This document shows, piece by piece, positions 42,142 through 58,269 of a stretch of DNA of 64,000 nucleotides. The notes below the pieces were generated by a model, which worked only from the letters and a program-made list of their open reading frames with translations, ran no database searches and was not told the DNA's origin. The stretch is from contig CAVPMX010000003.1 of the NCBI GenBank assembly GCA_963706745.1, forward strand, positions 101,132 through 165,131, written 5' to 3'. The position numbers were made by a program, and so were the translations under genes. Position 1 is the first letter of the stretch; every line of letters starts with the position of its first letter. Source of the stretch: an uncultured Actinomycetes bacterium (GTDB lineage Bacteria > Actinomycetota > Acidimicrobiia > IMCC26256 > PALSA-610).

Positions 42142-43910
42142 CTACTCGAGCACCACCAGGGCGTCGCCGGTGCCGACCGAGTCGCCGACGGAGACCCTGA
42201 TCTCGCGGACAGTGCCGGAGATCTCGGCGTTGATGTGGTTCTCCATCTTCATCGCCTCGAGGACCAACAGCGCCTGGCCGATCTCCACCTGTGCGTCGAC
42301 CTCTACGAGCACCTTGACGATCGTGCCCTGCATCGGCGCGGTGACGGTGCCGCTCCCCGCGCCGCCGGCCGACGAGGCCCTCGCCACCTTCGGACGGGCT
42401 CGGGCTCCCGAGCGCTGTGCCGATGATGCGTGCGAGGTCGATTCGGGGAGCCACACCTTGACGGTGAAGCGCTTGCCGTCGACCTCGACCGGCACGCTGC
42501 GCTCGATCAGCGGGGGCTCGCCGTCGTCTGCGGGGGCCTCGGCAACCGGAGCGGCCGGAGGGAAGAGCGCGTGGTCGACCTCGTCCTCGACCCACTTGGT
42601 CGAGTGGCGTGCGGCGGCGAAGTCGGCGTGGCGGAGCAGGGCGATGTGTGCTCCCGTGGTCGTCGCCACGCCCTCGATCTCGAGCTCCCCGAGCGCGCGG
42701 ACCATCCGGGCGATCGCCCGGTCGCGGTCGGGTGCCCATACGACCAGCTTCCCGATGAGGTTGTCGTAGAACTGAGAGACGGTGTCGCCCTCCGCGTAGC
42801 CGCCGTCCCAGCGGACCCCGGGACCGCCGGGGATCCGCATGCGGTCGATGCGACCGGGGGAGGGCATGAACTGCCTGGCCGGGTCCTCTGCGTTGATCCG
42901 GCACTCGATGGCGTGCCCGCGCATCGAGATCTCGTCCTGTGCGACCGAGAGCGGGAGGCCGGACGCGACCCGGATCTGCTCGGCGACGAGGTCGCTGGCG
43001 GTGACCTCCTCGGTGACGCAGTGCTCGACCTGCAGCCGGGTGTTCATCTCGAGGAAGTAGAAGGCGCCGTCCTGGTAGAGCATCTCGACCGTCCCGGCGC
43101 CCACGTAGCCGCAGGCCCTGGCCACCTTCACCGCCGCCTCGCCCATCGCGGCGCGCGTGTCGTCGGGGATCCCGGGAGCGGGTGCCTCCTCGATCAGCTT
43201 CTGGTGCCGCCGTTGCGTCGAGCAGTCGCGATCGCCGAAGTAGACGGCGCCGCCGTGCGTGTCGCAGAAGACCTGTATCTCGACGTGCCTCGGACGGGTT
43301 AGGTACCGCTCCAGGTACGCCTCGGGGCGCCCGAAGTAGGCCTGCGCCTCACGTGTGGCGGAGTCGAACGCGGATTGGGCATCCTCGGGCTGGTGCACGA
43401 CCTTCATGCCCCTGCCGCCCCCGCCGTAGGCGGCCTTGATGGCGATCGGGTAGCCGTGCTCCTCGCCGAAGGCGAGGATCTCCCTGACGTCGCGGATCGG
43501 GGACGGTCGTGCCGGGCACCGACTCGACGTCGGCTCGCTCCGCCGCCAGGCGGGAGGAGATCTTGTCGCCCATCACCTCGATCGCCTCGGGCGGCGGCCC
43601 GATCCAGGTTGCCCCGGCGTCGCCTACGGCCCTGGCGAAGTCGGCGTTCTCGCTGAAGAACCCGTACCCGGGGTGCACCCCGTCGGCGCCGGAACGCGTC
43701 GATCGCGTCGAGGATCGCGGGCACGTTCAGGTAGCTCTCGGCGGCGGTCTGGCCGCCTATCGAGAAGGCCTCGTCGGCGTAGCGCACGTGAACGGCGTCA
43801 CGATCGAGGTCGGAGTAGACGGCGACGGTGGAGATCCCGAGCTCGCGGCAGGTGCGCATGACGCGCAGGGTGATCTCGCCTCGGTTCGCGATGAGGATCT
43901 TCGACAGCAC
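42142..43910 (-). CDS. Acyl-CoA carboxylase alpha subunit (biotin carboxylase + BCCP, AccA/BccA); frameshifts ~43690 and ~43500
   Basis: [38 protein letters not shown] and EAMKM. Confidence 0.95.
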
Positions 43911-49015: not shown

Positions 49016-50160
49016 ATGGACTTCGACCTGAATCCCGAGCAGCAGCAGTTCCGCGGTGTCGTGCGCGAGTTCGCCGAGGCCGAGATCGCCCCGTACTGCT
49101 CGGAGTGGGACCGGACCTCGGCCTTCCCCCTCGACGCCGTCGCGAAGATGGCGGAGCTCGGGCTCTTCGGCCTGGTCTTCCCCGAGGAGTACGGAGGGGC
49201 AGGAGCCGGCTACCTCACGTACTGCCTCGCGCTCGAGGAGCTCGCGCGCGTCGACGTCTCCACCGCGATGACGCTGGAGGCCGGCGTCAGCCTCGGTGCG
49301 ATGCCGTTCCTGCTGGCGGGTACGGAGGAGCAGAAGCAGGAGTACCTCGTGCCCATGGTCGAGGGCCGGGCACTCGGTGCCTTCGGGCTCACGGAGTCGA
49401 CGTCGGGATCCGACGCCGGGAACGTGGGGACACGTGCCGAGCTCGACGCGGGGGAGTGGGTGATCGACGGGCAGAAGACCTTCATCACGAACTCGGGAAC
49501 GGCGATCACCAAGTGCGTGACGATCACGGCGCGCACCGGCCCGGGCGAGATCTCGAACGTCGTGGTCGACGCAGGGACGACCGGCTTCGAGGTGCTCCCT
49601 GCGTATCGCAAGATGGGCTGGCGCGCGAGCGATACCCACGAGCTCGTCTTCGACGGTTGCAGGGTCCCCGAGTCGAACCTCCTGGGCGAGAGGGGCGACG
49701 GGTTCAAGCTCTTCATGCGCATCCTCGACTCGGGCGCGTCGCCATCGCAGCCGTATCCGTAGGGCTCGCCCAGGCATGCCTCGACGCGGCCCTCGAGCAC
49801 GCGAAGGCGCGCGAAGCCTTCGGGGGCCCGATCGGTCGATACCAGGCCGTCGCCTTCAAGTGCGCCGACATGGCGCTCGCGATCGAGAACGCGAGGAGCC
49901 TCGTCTGGAAAGCAGCGTGGATGCACGAGCGGGGTGAGCCGATCCGGCAGATCGGCGCGATGGCGAAGCTCTACGCCAGCGAGGCAGCCGTCACCGCGAC
50001 GTGCGAGGCGCTGCAGATCCTCGGGGGGTACGGGTACATGGACGAGTCGCCGGTGAGCCGCTACTACCGCGACGCGAAGATCCTCGAGATCGGGGAGGGG
50101 ACGAGTGAGATCCAGCGCCTGGTCATCGCCCGCGGACTGGGCCTGCCGGTCGACACGTGA
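49016..50160 (+). CDS. Acyl-CoA dehydrogenase; frameshift ~49735
   Basis: FGLTESTSGSDA, KTFITN, KMGWRASDT, REAFG, GGYGY and EIGEGTSEIQR. Confidence 0.95.
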
Positions 50161-50415
50161 GTGGGGGGCGTGAGGCGCGGATGCCTCGAGCCGACTGGGC
50201 GAGCAATCGCCGACTGATGTCCACGGTGGATCGGCCTGATGTGGCGTTGGAGGGGCGGGGCTGAGACGGTCACCTTGCACGAGAGCGGTCAGCCGGTGGT
50301 CGCAGGGCTCCGGGCCGCGATCGTGACGGCGGTACCCGTCTCGAACGGCGCGGGCGGGCCGGGGCGCCTCGCCTGAGAGGCCGTCCGGGCAGCGTCCGCG
50401 AGCCGGGAGATGAGG

Positions 50416-50429
50416 GTGACCTACGTCAC
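50416..50429. promoter_or_regulatory. Candidate CRP/GlxR-family binding site
   Basis: GTGA-CCTACG-TCAC matches the GTGA-N6-TCAC core. Confidence 0.4.
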
Positions 50430-50539
50430 GCCACGGGCCGTCCGGGTTTACGGCCGCCCCCAGAACGGCATTCCGGCATGAATCCGACGCTCCCAGCGCG
50501 CACCGGACGAGCAAGTGCTCACGTTGAGTGAGATCCTGT

Positions 50540-50565
50540 TCAGGTCTCGGAAGCTCCGGGCCGAT
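50540..50565 (+). promoter_or_regulatory. Candidate sigma-28 (FliA/WhiG-type) promoter
   Basis: TCAG (50540-50543), 16 bp spacer, GCCGAT (50560-50565); predicted start ~50573, just before the structured leader. Confidence 0.55.
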
Positions 50566-50592
50566 CAACCCAGTGACCCGAGATGGGTCACA

Positions 50593-50664
50593 GGACGAGC
50601 GTAGATCCGCGGGCCCCTATCTGGTCGCCTGGGCCGCGGGGAGCTAGTGGCGAACCCACCGTCC
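50593..50664 (+). ncRNA. c-di-GMP-II-like riboswitch aptamer
   Basis: P1 GGACG/CGTCC; AGC/GCT; P3 CCGCGgGCCC/GGGCCGCGG; pseudoknot TCGCC (50625-50629)/GGCGA (50649-50653); conserved GGAGCTAGT; ~30 nt before the subtilase ATG. Confidence 0.75.
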
Positions 50665-50693
50665 ACCGAGCGTACGCCAGCCGGAGGTGGGGG

Positions 50694-52438
50694 ATGACCA
50701 GGTCGGAACGTACTCCGAAGAGCAGAGCAAGAGGCCCGAGGCTGCGCGCCAGAACCGCCTGCGTTCTGGTGCTCGTTCTCCTCGCCGGGGCGATGCTGGG
50801 GATCTCGGCAGCCGGCGCGAGGGTGCCGACCGACGAGGTCCTGATCCAGGTCGAGCCGGGGATGGAGTCCGTCGTCGCCGCAGAGGTGCGCGCCCTGGGA
50901 GGCAGACCCGACGAGCCGCTCGAGATCCTCAACGGGTTCGTCGCGGAGGTCCCGATCGCCGCGCTGGGAGGCATCCGCTCGATACCCGGAGTCACCTCCG
51001 TGACCGAGGGCTTCGACATCGCCTTCGACCCGGCCTTCTACGACCCCGAGAAGGTCTCGAGCTCGATGTACCAGGTCGCGCTGGAACGTCGGGGCAGACC
51101 GTCTCTGGAAGGCGGGATACACCGGCGCCGGGATCGACGTGGCTGTCATCGACACCGGCGTCGCGCCCCTTCCCGAGTTCGAAGGCCGCCTCGTCACCGG
51201 CCCGGACCTCTCCTTCGGATCGGGTGACGCCCCGCCGGGCCACGACCAGTTCGGGCACGGAACCCACCTCGCAGGGATCATCGCCGGCCGGGACCCCGCC
51301 GTGGCGCTGAATCCCGGCTCGCTGAAGAACGACGCAAAGCGGCGCTTCGTCGGCGTCGCTCCCGGAGCAAGGATCGTGAACCTCAAGGTCGCGGCGCCCG
51401 ACGGTGCCGTCGACGTCTCGCAGGTGATCGCAGCGATCGACTGGGTGGTCCAGAACCGCACTGCCAACGGCCTGAACATCCGCGTGCTCAACCTCGCCTA
51501 CGGCACCGACGGCCTCCAGGACTACCGGATCGACCCGCTCACCTTCGCGGTGGAGAACGCCTGGATGCACGGAATCGTCGTGGTCGTGGCAGCAGGCAAC
51601 GACGGATATGGCTCGCCACGCCTGAACAACCCTGCATACGACCCCTACGTGATCGCGGTCGGCGCCGCGGACACGAACCGCACCACCAAGCACGACGACG
51701 ACTTCGTCGCCGACTTCTCCAGCCGCGGCGACCGCAAGCGGCAACCCGACGTCGACGCTCCGGGACGCTCCATCGTGGGCCTGCGCGCTCCCGGATCTCT
51801 GGTCGACGAGGCCTTCCCGGCCGCCCGGGTCGGGACGACCCAGCTACGGGGCAGCGGCACCTCGCAGGCGACCGCCGTCACCGCAGGCGCGGCGGCCCTG
51901 CTGCTCCAGCGGTACCCGCACCTCACGCCGGACATGGTCAAGGCCGTCCTCGCCCAGACCGCCAGGGAGATCGCGCCGGGCATCGCGCCGGGCATCGCGA
52001 AGCGGCACGGCGACGACGATGACGACGATGACGACGATCGACGATGACGATGGCGATGACGCACTGAGCATCGACCTCGCCAAGGCGCACGAAGCCGTCA
52101 AGGACCTTCGCGAAGGTGAGCTCAGGTACGTACAGCGCTACACGCGGGCCACCGGCCTGGGCTCGCTGGAGGCAGCACGGGGCAGCGAGCACGTCGTGGC
52201 CGACGACGCCGTCCTGAGCGGGGAGGTCGACGTCACCGGTGCACCCTGGGACGGTCGGAGTTGGAGGGACGATGCCTGGAACGGCCGGAGCTGGCGGAGC
52301 GACGGCTGGCTGGGCCGCAGCTGGCGGAGCGACGGCTGGCTGGGCCGGAGCTGGCGGAGCGACGCCTGGCTGGGTCGCAGCTGGCGCGGCGGCGCCTGGC
52401 TCGCAGCGGAGTTCGTACCCACGGACCCGCTCTGGTAG
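50694..52438 (+). CDS. Secreted S8 subtilase with propeptide, poly-Asp tract and C-terminal Trp pentapeptide repeats; frameshifts ~51085 and ~52039
   Basis: SD GGAGG and a signal peptide. Catalytic VIDTG, HGTHLAG, AAGN and GTSQA are all present. Confidence 0.9.
52012..52060 (+). repeat. GAC/GAT microsatellite encoding poly-Asp
   Basis: Run of GAY codons interrupted by one extra C (~52039) and one GGC codon. Confidence 0.85.
52247..52402 (+). repeat. 30-bp tandem repeat x5 encoding (WxGRS-WRxDx)
   Basis: WDGRSWRDDA WNGRSWRSDG WLGRSWRSDG WLGRSWRSDA WLGRSWRGGA WL. Confidence 0.95.
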
Positions 52439-54330: not shown

Positions 54331-55628
54331 GTGAGGATCGCCGTCATCGGGGCCGGATACGTCGGCCTGACCTCCGCTGCCTGCCTGGCGCACCTGGGAC
54401 ACGACGTCGTCTGCGCCGACATCGACCGTGAGCGCGTTCGCCCGACTCGCGAAGGGCGAGGTGCCGATCCTGGAAGAGGGGCTGCCCGCGCCTCGTGGCC
54501 GAGGGATTGGCGGCACGCCGGCTGGAGTTCGTGGTCGGTGCCGAGAACGCCGTTCGCGAGGCCGAGGTCGTACTCCTCTGCGTCCCGACTCCACAGGGCG
54601 ACGACGGATCCGCCGACCTCTCGTACGTCGAAGACGTCTCCCGGGAGATCGCCCCGGCGCTGCGATCCGGAGCCGTGGTCGTGAACAAGTCGACGATGCC
54701 GGTCGGGTCGACCCGACTCGTACAGCGGATCCTCGCCGAGGCGGGTGCCGGGCTCGACAGGGTCACGGTCGCGTCGAACCCCGAGTTCCTTCGCGAGGGT
54801 GCGGCGGTCCGCGACTTCCTGAACCCGGATCGGATCGTCGTCGGCTGCGACGACCCGGCGGCGGCCGTGCGGGTCTCCGACCTGTACCGCAGCGTCCGGG
54901 CCCCCGTGCTGGTGACCGACCCGGCGTCGGCCGAGATGATCAAGTACGCGTCGAATGCGTTCCTGGCTACGAAGATCTCGTTCATCAACGCGATCGCCAA
55001 CCTCTGCGAGGAGGTCGATGCCGACGTGCGCGAGGTCGCGCTTGGGCATGGGCTACGACAGCCGCATCGGGTTCGAGTTCCTGCATCCCGGTCCCGGGCT
55101 ACGGCGGATCGTGCTTCCCCAAGGACACGGCCGCTCTGCTCCACATGGCCCGACAAGCGGGCTACGACTTCGACCTGCTCGACGGTGTCCGGCGTGTGAA
55201 CGTCGAGCAGCACGAGCGCATCGTCGAGAAGACGCGGGCGGCGGTGAGCGGCACGCTCGAAGGGGCCACGGTCGCCGTGTGGGGGCTCACCTTCAAGGCC
55301 GACACCGACGACCTGCGCGACTCGCCGTCGCTCTACATCGCGCGGCGCCTGCTCGAGGAGGGCGCCTCGGTGCAGGCCTACGACCCTGCGGCCGGCGAGC
55401 GCGCGGCGCGCTGTGCTCGCCGGGCTCGACGTCCGCACGGACGCATACGAGACCTGCGCACAGGCCGACGTGCTGGCGGTGCTCACGGAGTGGGACGAGT
55501 TCCGGTGGCTCGACTTCGACCGAGTCAAGGCGGCGATGCGCCGGCCGGCGATCGTCGACGGACGCAACCTGCTCGACCCGGTCGCCCTTCGACGGCGAGG
55601 CTTCACCTACGCGGGTGTCGGTCGCTGA
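54331..55628 (+). CDS. ugd: UDP-glucose 6-dehydrogenase; several frameshifts
   Basis: [65 protein letters not shown] and DGRN. Confidence 0.92.
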
Positions 55629-56578
55629 TGGCGCGGGTCGTCGTAACGGGTGGAGCCGGATTCGTCGGCTCGCACGTCTGCGACGTCCTCCTGTCGAGAG
55701 GCGACGAGGTCGTCTGCGTCGACAACTTCAGCACCGGGATGCGCGAGAACGACCGCGCCGCACGCCCACGATCCGGCCTATGAGCTCGTGGTCTCCGACG
55801 TGAGCCGTGAGCTGCCCGTGTCGGGGCGCGTCGACGCGGTGATGCACCTCGCCAGCCCGGCGAGCCCTCCCGACTACCTCCGGATGCCCCTCGAGTCGCT
55901 CGACGTCGGGTCGCTCGGTACGCGGCTCGCCCTGGATCTCGCGCTCGCGCAACGGTGCGAGGTTCGTCCTGGCGTCCACGAGCGAGGTCTACGGGGACCC
56001 ACTGGTGCACCCTCAGAGCGAGTCCTACTGGGGCAACGTGAACCCCGTCGGCCCTCGTGCGGTGTACGACGAGGCGAAGCGCTTCGCCGAGACGCTGACC
56101 ATGACCTACTTCCGCCTGCACGCCCTCTCGGCCGGGATCGCGCGGATCTTCAACACCTACGGCCCCAGGCTGAGACCGGGCGACGGCCGGGTCGTGTCCA
56201 ACTTCTTGGTGCAGGCGATGGAGAACCGGCCCCTCACCGTCTACGGCGACGGCAGCCAGACAAGGTCTTTCTGCTTCGTCGACGACGAGGCGCGCGGATT
56301 GGTGTCGCTACTCGACTCGGATCTCGTGGGCCCCGTGAACATCGGCAACCCCGACGAGTTCACCGTGCTCGAGCTGTCGAAGATCGTCGTCGAGCTGACG
56401 GGTTCCCACTCCGAGGTCGTGTTCGAGGACCTGCCGATCGACGACCCCGACGCGTCGCTGCCCCGACATCGCCCGTGCGCGAGAGATGCTCGGTTGGGAG
56501 CCTCGCGTCGACCTGCGCGAAGGCTTGGCACGCACACACGCCTGGTACCTGGAGGAGCGCGCCCGTGGTGGAGCCTGA
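55628..56578 (+). CDS. UDP-glucuronate decarboxylase (UXS-like SDR); frameshifts ~55750, ~55955, ~56450
   Basis: [61 protein letters not shown] and NIGNP. Confidence 0.88.
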
Positions 56579-57296
56579 TCCTGTCGCCGAGGCTCCCAGG
56601 TACCGGAAGCTGTCCGTGGTGGTGCCCGTCTACGACGAGCGGAACACCATCGCCGAGGTCCTACGCCGCATGCGCGCGGTGCGACCTTCCGGGCGGCCTC
56701 GACCTCGAGATCGTGATCGTCGACGACGGCAGCACCGACGGCACGAGTGAGGTTCTGTCGCAGCTCGGCGACAGCACGGTGCGCGTCGTGCACCACGGCG
56801 AGAACCGGGGCAAGGGTGCCGCCGTGAGGACGGGCTTCGCGAGCGTGACCGGGCGATCTGGTCCTGATACAGGACGCCGACCTCGAGTACGACCCGGAGG
56901 ACTGGCCGCGCCTCATCAACCCGATGCTCAGTGGCAAGGCGGAGGTCGTCTACGGATCACGCTTCACGGGCGAGCGACGCAACATGCTCTTCTTCCACTG
57001 GGTCGGCAATCGCTTCCTGTCGCTCGTGACGAACGTCCTCTACAACACGACGCTCTCCGACATGGAGACCTGCTACAAGCTCTTCGACCGGCGCGTCGTC
57101 GACAGCGTTGACCCTGAAGGCCGATCGCTTCGACATCGAACCCGAGATGACGGCGAAGGTCCTGCGCCGTGGAATCCGCATCTACGAGGTGCCGATCTCC
57201 TACGCCGGACGGGAGTTCGAGGAGGGCAAGAAGATCACCTGGCGCGACGGCTTCTCTGCGCTGTGGACTCTGGTCAAGTATCGATTCGTCGACTAG
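56568..57296 (+). CDS. Glycosyltransferase family 2 (polyprenol-phosphate glycosyltransferase, DPM1-like); frameshifts
   Basis: [41 protein letters not shown] and [10 protein letters not shown]. Confidence 0.88.
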
Positions 57297-58269
57297 ATGG
57301 GAGCGTCGGAGAGCACGGCAGCCGGCGACGGTGAGACGCCCCCCGCAGACGACGATTCGCAGCGGTCGACGCGATGGGCGGCCGTCGTCGTCAACTACAA
57401 CGCCGGAGCGCTGGTCGTCGCTGCGGTCCGATCGCTCCTGCTCGACGTCGGGGGCGGAGGGCCGCCGGAGGTGGTGGTGGTCGACAACGCCTCGACCGAC
57501 GGCTCGGTCGAGGCGTTGCTCTCGTCGAATCTCGATGTGCGCGTCGTCCGCTCTGCGGGCAACGTCGGCTATGCGCGCGGGGCGAACCTCGGGATCGCGG
57601 CGTGCCGCGCTCCCGTCGTCGCCGTGGTCAATGCCGACGCGGAGATCGAGCGCGGAGCGGCGGCCGCGTGCTCTGCGCCGCTTCGACCTGGAGCCCGAGG
57701 TCGGCGCCGTCGGGCCGCGGATCACGAACACCGACGGGACCGACTACCCGTCGGCGCGGTCGCTGCCCTCGATCGTCGACGCGGCCGGGCACGGGGCTCT
57801 CGGGCTCTTCTGGCCGTCGAATCCCTTCACCCGGCGGTACCGGCATCTCGACGCCGACCCGTCCCTCACGCGCGACGTCGACTGGGTCTCCGGAGCGGCC
57901 GTATGGCTGCGCCGCGCCGCCCTCGACGACGTGGGGGGCTGGGACGAGCGGTACTTCATGTACATGGAGGACGTCGATCTCTGTTGGCGGCTCCGGCGTC
58001 GCGGCTGGCGAGTCGTCTACGAGCCGGCCGCTCGGGTCACCCACGTCCAGGGGGTCAGCGCGTCCAGGCGTCCGTACCGGATGATCCTCGAGCACCACCG
58101 CTCGGCGTGGCGGTTCACGCTGCGCCGTTACACGGGTCTCAGGAGGGTCATGCTCCCGGCGGCCGGCATCTACCTGGCGGTGAGGTGCGGCGCCGCGTGG
58201 GTCGAGCACGCCGTGCGGGCAGGCGCAGAGCGTCGTCGCACGCGCGGTAGCCTCCTGGGCGATGGGTAA
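57297..58269 (+). CDS. Glycosyltransferase family 2, WbbL-like; frameshift ~57670
   Basis: VVVNYN, VDNASTDGS, NVGYARGAN, DWVSGA, GGWDERYFMYMEDVDLC and HHRSA; shortly upstream of manB. Confidence 0.85.

Follow-up and report, generated by a model that had tools for sequence, protein, structure and literature searches.

The aptamer and the gene behind it

The forward strand of the window (the whole stretch of 64,000 nucleotides that was analysed) carries a c-di-GMP-II-clan aptamer at 50593..50664, followed by an S8 subtilase gene at 50694..52438. When the whole window was scanned with Rfam, the single match above cut-off was to c-di-GMP-II-GCG (RF03170), which covers 50588-50669 with 53.1 bits against a cut-off of 47.9 (E 8.8e-7 for the whole window). 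Scored on the same interval, c-di-GMP-II-GAG (RF03169) also passes (46.3 bits, cut-off 40) and the canonical c-di-GMP-II family (RF01786) fails (44 bits, gathering cut-off 53.5). With scores above the gathering thresholds of two member families and the layout of clan CL00127 (P1, P2, kink-turn-type loop, P3 and pseudoknot, with covariation), the segment is a genuine aptamer of this clan. The original prediction, which had placed a class-II c-di-GMP-type aptamer ahead of a subtilase and had named the Rfam c-di-GMP-II and variant models as the check, was thereby confirmed for the aptamer, as it was for the gene (PF00082, E 5e-41, Pfam).

All the class-II pairings that had been drawn are found in their places in the sequence. 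P1 is formed by GGACG (50593-50597) and CGTCC (50660-50664), and P2 by AGC (50598-50600) and GCT (50643-50645). The 5' strand of P1 runs directly into that of P2 (50593..50600), the unpaired A13 of the crystallised aptamer being absent or the single A being either 13 or 14. In the Rfam alignment the segment 50601..50645 holds the kink-turn-type loop (GTA-GA 50601-50605 / GGA 50640-50642), P3 (50607-50616 / 50630-50639), a loop with GG-TCGCC and the 3' strand of P2. Pseudoknot P4 pairs TCGCC (50625-50629) with GGCGA (50649-50653) and spans 50623..50657 when its extension is counted, GG (50623-50624) with CC (50656-50657), which the prediction had not contained. The predicted ligand junction, ACCCAC (50654..50659), corresponds to A69 C70 C71 C72 A73 C74 in the numbering of the crystal structure 3Q3Z, mapped onto the RF01786 consensus. 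The junctions had been described as shorter than usual or different; the 5' side is indeed shorter by one nucleotide, while the 3' side has the normal six nucleotides, three of which differ from the crystallised aptamer. The folding energy of the aptamer was unremarkable against shuffles (z 0.30-0.41), so that the case for it rests on the covariance model and on covariation.

The subtilase belongs to family S8 by its domain score and by the motifs DTG, HGT and GTS of the D/H/S triad; its N-terminus is hydrophobic and its product is likely to be secreted. In the assembly its frame is broken near 51081-51084 and within 51973-52066, as judged by tblastn against the intact paralog on contig C4 of the same genome. 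This paralog is 82% identical to it and has a GGDEF gene downstream. The subtilase led by an ACCCGG aptamer in L018 is 61% identical to that of the window, closer than all the compared ACCCAC-led subtilases except the paralog. The subtilase tree was mostly open, with rows L014 and L029 badly trimmed, and no order of events was drawn from it. Close to the C-terminus (52240-52400) the motif W-x-GRSWR(S/N/G)D is repeated about five times; the paralog has such repeats too, and for this part of the protein no Pfam match was reported. Many other genes between 42000 and 60000 are split into overlapping frames, among them an acyl-CoA dehydrogenase (49016-50160), a carboxylase (43349-43910) and sugar-nucleotide genes (54331-57334), which suggests that the assembly is rich in indels here.

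A recurrent variant pocket

The ligand contacts in 3Q3Z are A13, A14, U37, G39, U60, A61, C68, A69, A70, C71, C72, G73 and A74, as given in the accessible part of PMC7288161. A69 recognises the upper base, A70 lies intercalated between the bases and G73 recognises the lower guanine, and the floor of the pocket is a non-canonical pair topping P1 (PMC13715770). Position numbers from the accessible part of PMC7288161 and from PMC13715770 were mapped onto the RF01786 consensus. Five of the 13 contacts in that list differ in the window copy (13, 68, 70, 73 and 74): there is no nucleotide 13 between P1 and P2, position 68 is an A, and A69 C70 A73 C74 stand where the crystallised aptamer has A69 A70 G73 A74. 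The pocket matches none of the aligned consensus lines.

With the canonical class (RF01786; 3Q3Z is from Clostridium acetobutylicum) the window copy shares the P1-P2-kink turn-P3-pseudoknot scaffold and retains A14-U60, A61, A69, C71 and C72, whereas it scores below the cut-off of that class and has the five changed contacts. Ligand binding is established for the canonical class, whereas the window copy is a predicted binder, known from its sequence. It is more like RF03170, a family which we take to originate from Weinberg et al. 2017 PNAS, with the same GGUCGCC/GGCGA pseudoknot and its U-A closing pair, C70, the kink-turn loop and the helix layout. The names GCG and GAG presumably spell positions 69, 70 and 73. 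On this understanding, and with the consensus GCCCG, the RF03170 pocket is G69, C70, G73, whereas the window copy has A69, C70, A73; its consensus has GCCCGa at the junction and, ahead of P2, an unpaired purine (A13) that faces position 74, whereas the window copy reads ACCCAC, lacks this nucleotide and has C at 74. RF03169, going by its name, would differ at all three positions (G69-A70-G73). The scaffold is also that of the cGAMP-binding construct c-di-GMP-II-Bh / BhP1-5delC, whose pocket can hold 3',3'- and 2',3'-cGAMP (PMC13715770). This construct is engineered and keeps the three pocket adenines, G68 (equivalent to G73) and an A-G floor pair, all of which are changed or missing in the window copy.

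Deviations of this kind might have been assembly errors, or the decay of a dead riboswitch before a broken gene. Such an origin is not without its attractions, since the assembly is indel-rich here, with two frame breaks in the subtilase itself, and since relatives read GGACG-AA-GC, from which the loss of one A would imitate the 5' change. It is nonetheless hardly credible given how the form recurs. The genome itself has four clan copies, and the copy before the intact paralogous subtilase (L003, on another contig) also lacks nucleotide 13, by a different sequence, GGACG-GAC. A copy from a separate genome (L063) has a P1/P2/junction core identical to that of the window. A search of the GTDB species genomes with an exact pattern that stopped at A73 gave 41 matches at 40 loci, 24 of the loci in Saccharibacteria, 11 in Actinomycetota, 3 in Bacillota and 2 in others; position 74 had been left free in the pattern and was C in 38 of the 41 matches. 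Four of these loci (L043, L059, L062 and L071) were left out as unparsed. A looser pattern ending in ACCCAC gave at least 120 loci in metagenomes, from which 81 distinct aptamers with at least three P1 pairs were retained, and 0 matches in viral contigs. In the order to which the window's genome belongs, the ACCCAC pattern was present in 10 of 264 genomes.

The missing nucleotide goes with this junction. P1 abutting P2 directly pairs better in 75 of 114 distinct ACCCAC aptamers, against 36 that pair better with nucleotide 13 and three ties, whereas among the relatives' 82 copies with G73 the corresponding counts are two, 71 and nine. G73 is retained in 82 of the 88 parsed copies from 60 relatives (104 loci, less 14 unparsed and two duplicates). 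The register without nucleotide 13 is not confined to ACCCAC, being found also in some Saccharibacteria copies with the canonical pocket (L291 and L303). Since the linked pocket changes recur in Actinomycetota, Saccharibacteria and Bacillota, the variant is judged to be real, as the original prediction had allowed. The other branch of that prediction, an indel error as the cause of the deviations, is ruled out because the same architecture is found in the paralog on another contig and, independently, in dozens of other genomes and metagenome contigs.

In an alignment of the 75 distinct aptamers that lack nucleotide 13, 94.8% of the cells pair, against 35-40% in slid controls, and two-sided changes occur at 15 of the 21 pairs, although the sequences had been selected for at least three P1 pairs in this register and the covariation of P1 (its top pair being CG29/GC27/AU17) is therefore partly circular. 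Helices 2-3 are 92-93% paired. Pseudoknot P4 is paired in 100% of the sequences, with compensatory changes at two pairs (UA53/CG20/GC2 and GC60/AU15). Judged from these sequence comparisons, the A73-C74 pocket is a rare but recurrent sub-type that extends across several phyla. The Rfam clan cut-offs are passed by only 6 of 20 ACCCAC loci; in Saccharibacteria they are passed by none of 10 ACCCAC copies versus 7 of 10 copies with other pockets.

As far as the searchable literature goes, the ACCCAC form is a new structural sub-variant within a clan already known, and no ligand seems to have been assigned there to the variant class II aptamers. RF03170 and RF03169 appear as list entries only in the accessible parts of PMC9943018 and PMC12452182, with neither a ligand nor an A73/C74 form; the founding papers (Weinberg 2017 PNAS, Smith 2011, Bose 2016) or their supplements may contain ACCCAC-type sequences or data on G73A. 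The literature covered also included the accessible parts of PMC7266159, PMC5473149, PMC5737381, PMC5888326 and PMC11665869.

Control of translation

The Shine-Dalgarno sequence GGAGG (50683-50687) begins 18 nt past P1 and is followed by the start codon ATG (50694-50696). Neither an intrinsic terminator nor a sigma-70-type promoter was found in 50150-50750. In the free MFE fold the junction and the 3' strand of P1 pair over the Shine-Dalgarno sequence, and the start codon is covered by pairing with the pseudoknot loop; the predicted alternative helix (50655..50691) joins CCCACC-GUCC to GGAGGUGGG. To open the ribosome site was computed to take 11.8 kcal/mol when the RNA is free and 8.1 when the aptamer is held, a comparison without a matched control, and a drop was likewise obtained in 10 of 10 ACCCAC subtilase leaders, again without such a control.

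From these models the aptamer probably acts as a translational ON switch. Without ligand, the junction and the P1 3' strand would pair with the Shine-Dalgarno region; with ligand bound, P1 and the pseudoknot would be locked, the Shine-Dalgarno sequence released and the subtilase translated. The translational control proposed earlier is plausible, and a helix over GGAGG can be drawn, but this helix is not above shuffles in the window copy (p 0.19-0.26), and the blocking duplex beats them (p<=0.05) in only 9 of 71 leaders, which speaks against the switch.

Gene context and the ligand

It is known that c-di-GMP controls surface and biofilm genes. Among 37 scanned proteins encoded downstream of the aptamers, seven were GGDEF proteins and seven were pieces of S8 subtilases. 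Further downstream genes are of this surface and biofilm kind, with products that include glycosyltransferases, a polysaccharide exporter, a protein with a SipW-type signal peptide and a multiheme cytochrome. Many others encode unannotated secreted proteins. S8 subtilases stand behind ACCCAC copies and also behind eight copies of relatives with other pockets; GGDEF genes of Saccharibacteria follow eight ACCCAC copies and three canonical A69-A70-G73 copies; and the moaA locus has mostly ACCCGA but ACCCAC copies too (L341, L246). Because ACCCAC and G73 pockets alternate in this way at homologous genes, a new ligand is argued against, and the specificity variant that had been suggested finds no support. 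A switch of specificity would be expected to bring genes of its own; none were seen, and the simplest account is therefore a compensated pocket with the same ligand, most likely c-di-GMP. On this gene context, we consider it fairly likely that the ligand is unchanged.

Clusters of a neighbouring LCP protein place the host of the window in Actinomycetota, and named records with similar subtilases make Acidimicrobiia probable. The genome of the window has 17 GGDEF matches, with GHxxGD in 14 of the 16 examined, and one DAC; no SMODS match was found in this assembly, which is about 80% complete. The readable GGDEF proteins mostly have Asp at the guanine-binding position PleD-D344, with Asn as the exception, and none has Ser, the residue that marks the cGAMP-making Hypr type in the accessible part of PMC7288161. 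The exceptions (L010, L019 and L288, all encoded behind clan aptamers) read GHxxGN. The ACCCAC copies of Bacillota (L056, L072, L065) stand before DUF5317 genes, with a short ORF between, or before a Spo0E-like gene, and L072 has two aptamers in tandem. The fourth clan copy of the window's genome (L328, G000:C5:150893-150971) has a UCACG/CGUGA pseudoknot and the junction ACCCGA, and precedes an ORF of 271 aa with a hydrophobic N-terminus.

A model built from the ACCCAC sub-type matched 34 of 151 Saccharibacteria-order genomes (G061-G214), with one to nine class-II-type aptamers each. GGDEF was found in 88 of the 151, mostly as a single gene, and DAC in none. Aptamer and GGDEF occur together in 18 genomes, in 11 of which an aptamer lies less than 1 kb upstream of the GGDEF gene on the same strand, two of these 11 being seed genomes; in the 16 other aptamer-bearing genomes, which are incomplete, GGDEF was not seen. 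At the level of genomes no link between aptamer and GGDEF was found in this order (18 of 34 aptamer-bearing genomes versus 70 of 117 others, p 0.55). Five genomes were looked at closely, three of them picked for adjacency: each has one GGDEF with an aptamer upstream and neither EAL nor DAC, and SMODS is present in one and was found in none of the other four. The GGDEF tree had no starred branches and no order of events was drawn. These gene contents suggest that the Saccharibacteria epibionts may possess a minimal c-di-GMP circuit of cyclase plus riboswitch; in a limited literature search no paper reporting class-II riboswitches in Saccharibacteria was found.

Taken together, we judge it rather likely that the locus holds an aptamer of the class II c-di-GMP fold with a recurrent rebuilt junction (A73, C74, C70 and usually no nucleotide 13), still binding c-di-GMP and predicted to turn on translation of the subtilase; fold and recurrence are observed, the ligand is taken from gene context and the switch is modelled. 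Speculatively, in the absence of A13 the pocket may sit one layer lower, onto P1, with A73 perhaps assuming a stacking role and C74 perhaps recognising the lower guanine. Against c-di-GMP, the changed bases are direct ligand contacts (by the list in the accessible part of PMC7288161), the scaffold is promiscuous in that a construct which keeps G73 binds 3',3'-cGAMP at 11 nM (PMC13715770), and the genome-level link to GGDEF is missing in Saccharibacteria. The same contacts would fit a pocket of shifted specificity, either for a cyclic dinucleotide that contains adenine (c-di-AMP, 3',3'-cGAMP or 2',3'-cGAMP) or for some other nucleotide signal, with A73 reading adenine where G73 reads guanine. 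This is a reading that we consider unlikely, although A73 and C74 are tightly linked whereas relatives keep G73, and the window's genome has its one DAC. G103 of GEMM-II is presumably the equivalent of G73. An engineered 2',3'-cGAMP sensor is named 'G103A GEMM-II' in the table of a review accessible in part (PMC11352751). Such a shift is opposed by the interchange of pockets before subtilases, GGDEFs and moaA with no distinct gene set, by the lack of any Hypr-type Ser GGDEF among those read, by the absence of SMODS matches in the window's incomplete genome and in four of the five Saccharibacteria examined, and by the lack of DAC among the 151 genomes.

That the A73-C74 form, mostly without nucleotide 13, would constitute a separate riboswitch class for such an adenine-containing dinucleotide or other nucleotide signal is decidedly doubtful. 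In Saccharibacteria it could then respond to a signal taken from the host actinobacterium and control the one diguanylate cyclase of the epibiont, an idea framed by the absence of DAC matches and by the many carriers without a visible GGDEF. More improbable still is one orphan ligand, other than c-di-GMP, for the whole lineage with the U-A pseudoknot (the GCG/GAG clan copies, the sub-variant included). In the literature that could be searched, neither RF03170 nor RF03169 was found with an assigned ligand, and the many unannotated secreted proteins would agree with such a ligand; yet the same lineage holds fully canonical A69-A70-G73 copies that pass RF01786, and GGDEF genes are led by canonical-pocket copies as well as by ACCCAC ones.

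Natural matched pairs, in which one kind of gene is led by two pockets (subtilases L001 and L018; Saccharibacteria GGDEFs L312 and L291), bear on the need for G73, A70 and A13 in the recognition of c-di-GMP. Should c-di-GMP binding persist, the rules for the pocket drawn from the crystal structure are too narrow and many calls of 'variant' aptamers are compensated forms; if it does not bind the ACCCAC pocket, this is a new class. Either way most ACCCAC copies are missed by the Rfam cut-offs, and it is these copies that point to the minimal circuit of Saccharibacteria.

A separate sub-type of the clan has a 2-nt spacer after A61, the loop GG-UCGCU-G and mostly the junction ACCCGA. Its copies are L002 (G000:C7:191147-191230) in the window's genome and L020, L031, L078 and L092-L148 in relatives. 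The gene moaA lies directly behind it in 21 of 25 distinct copies, versus 0 of 66 other copies, and the Rfam Moco riboswitch was not found in the window's genome. By this gene context the sub-type is a candidate for a ligand related to the molybdenum cofactor or to GTP. Being orthologous, the moaA loci count as a single event, and moaA is not near two copies that belong to a different order. In L032, L093, L096, L107 and L141 the moaA-type aptamer points away from moaA, whose start lies on the opposite strand at a distance of 240-505 nt; candidate explanations for these five are antisense placement or the inversion of an element whose P1 stem is long.
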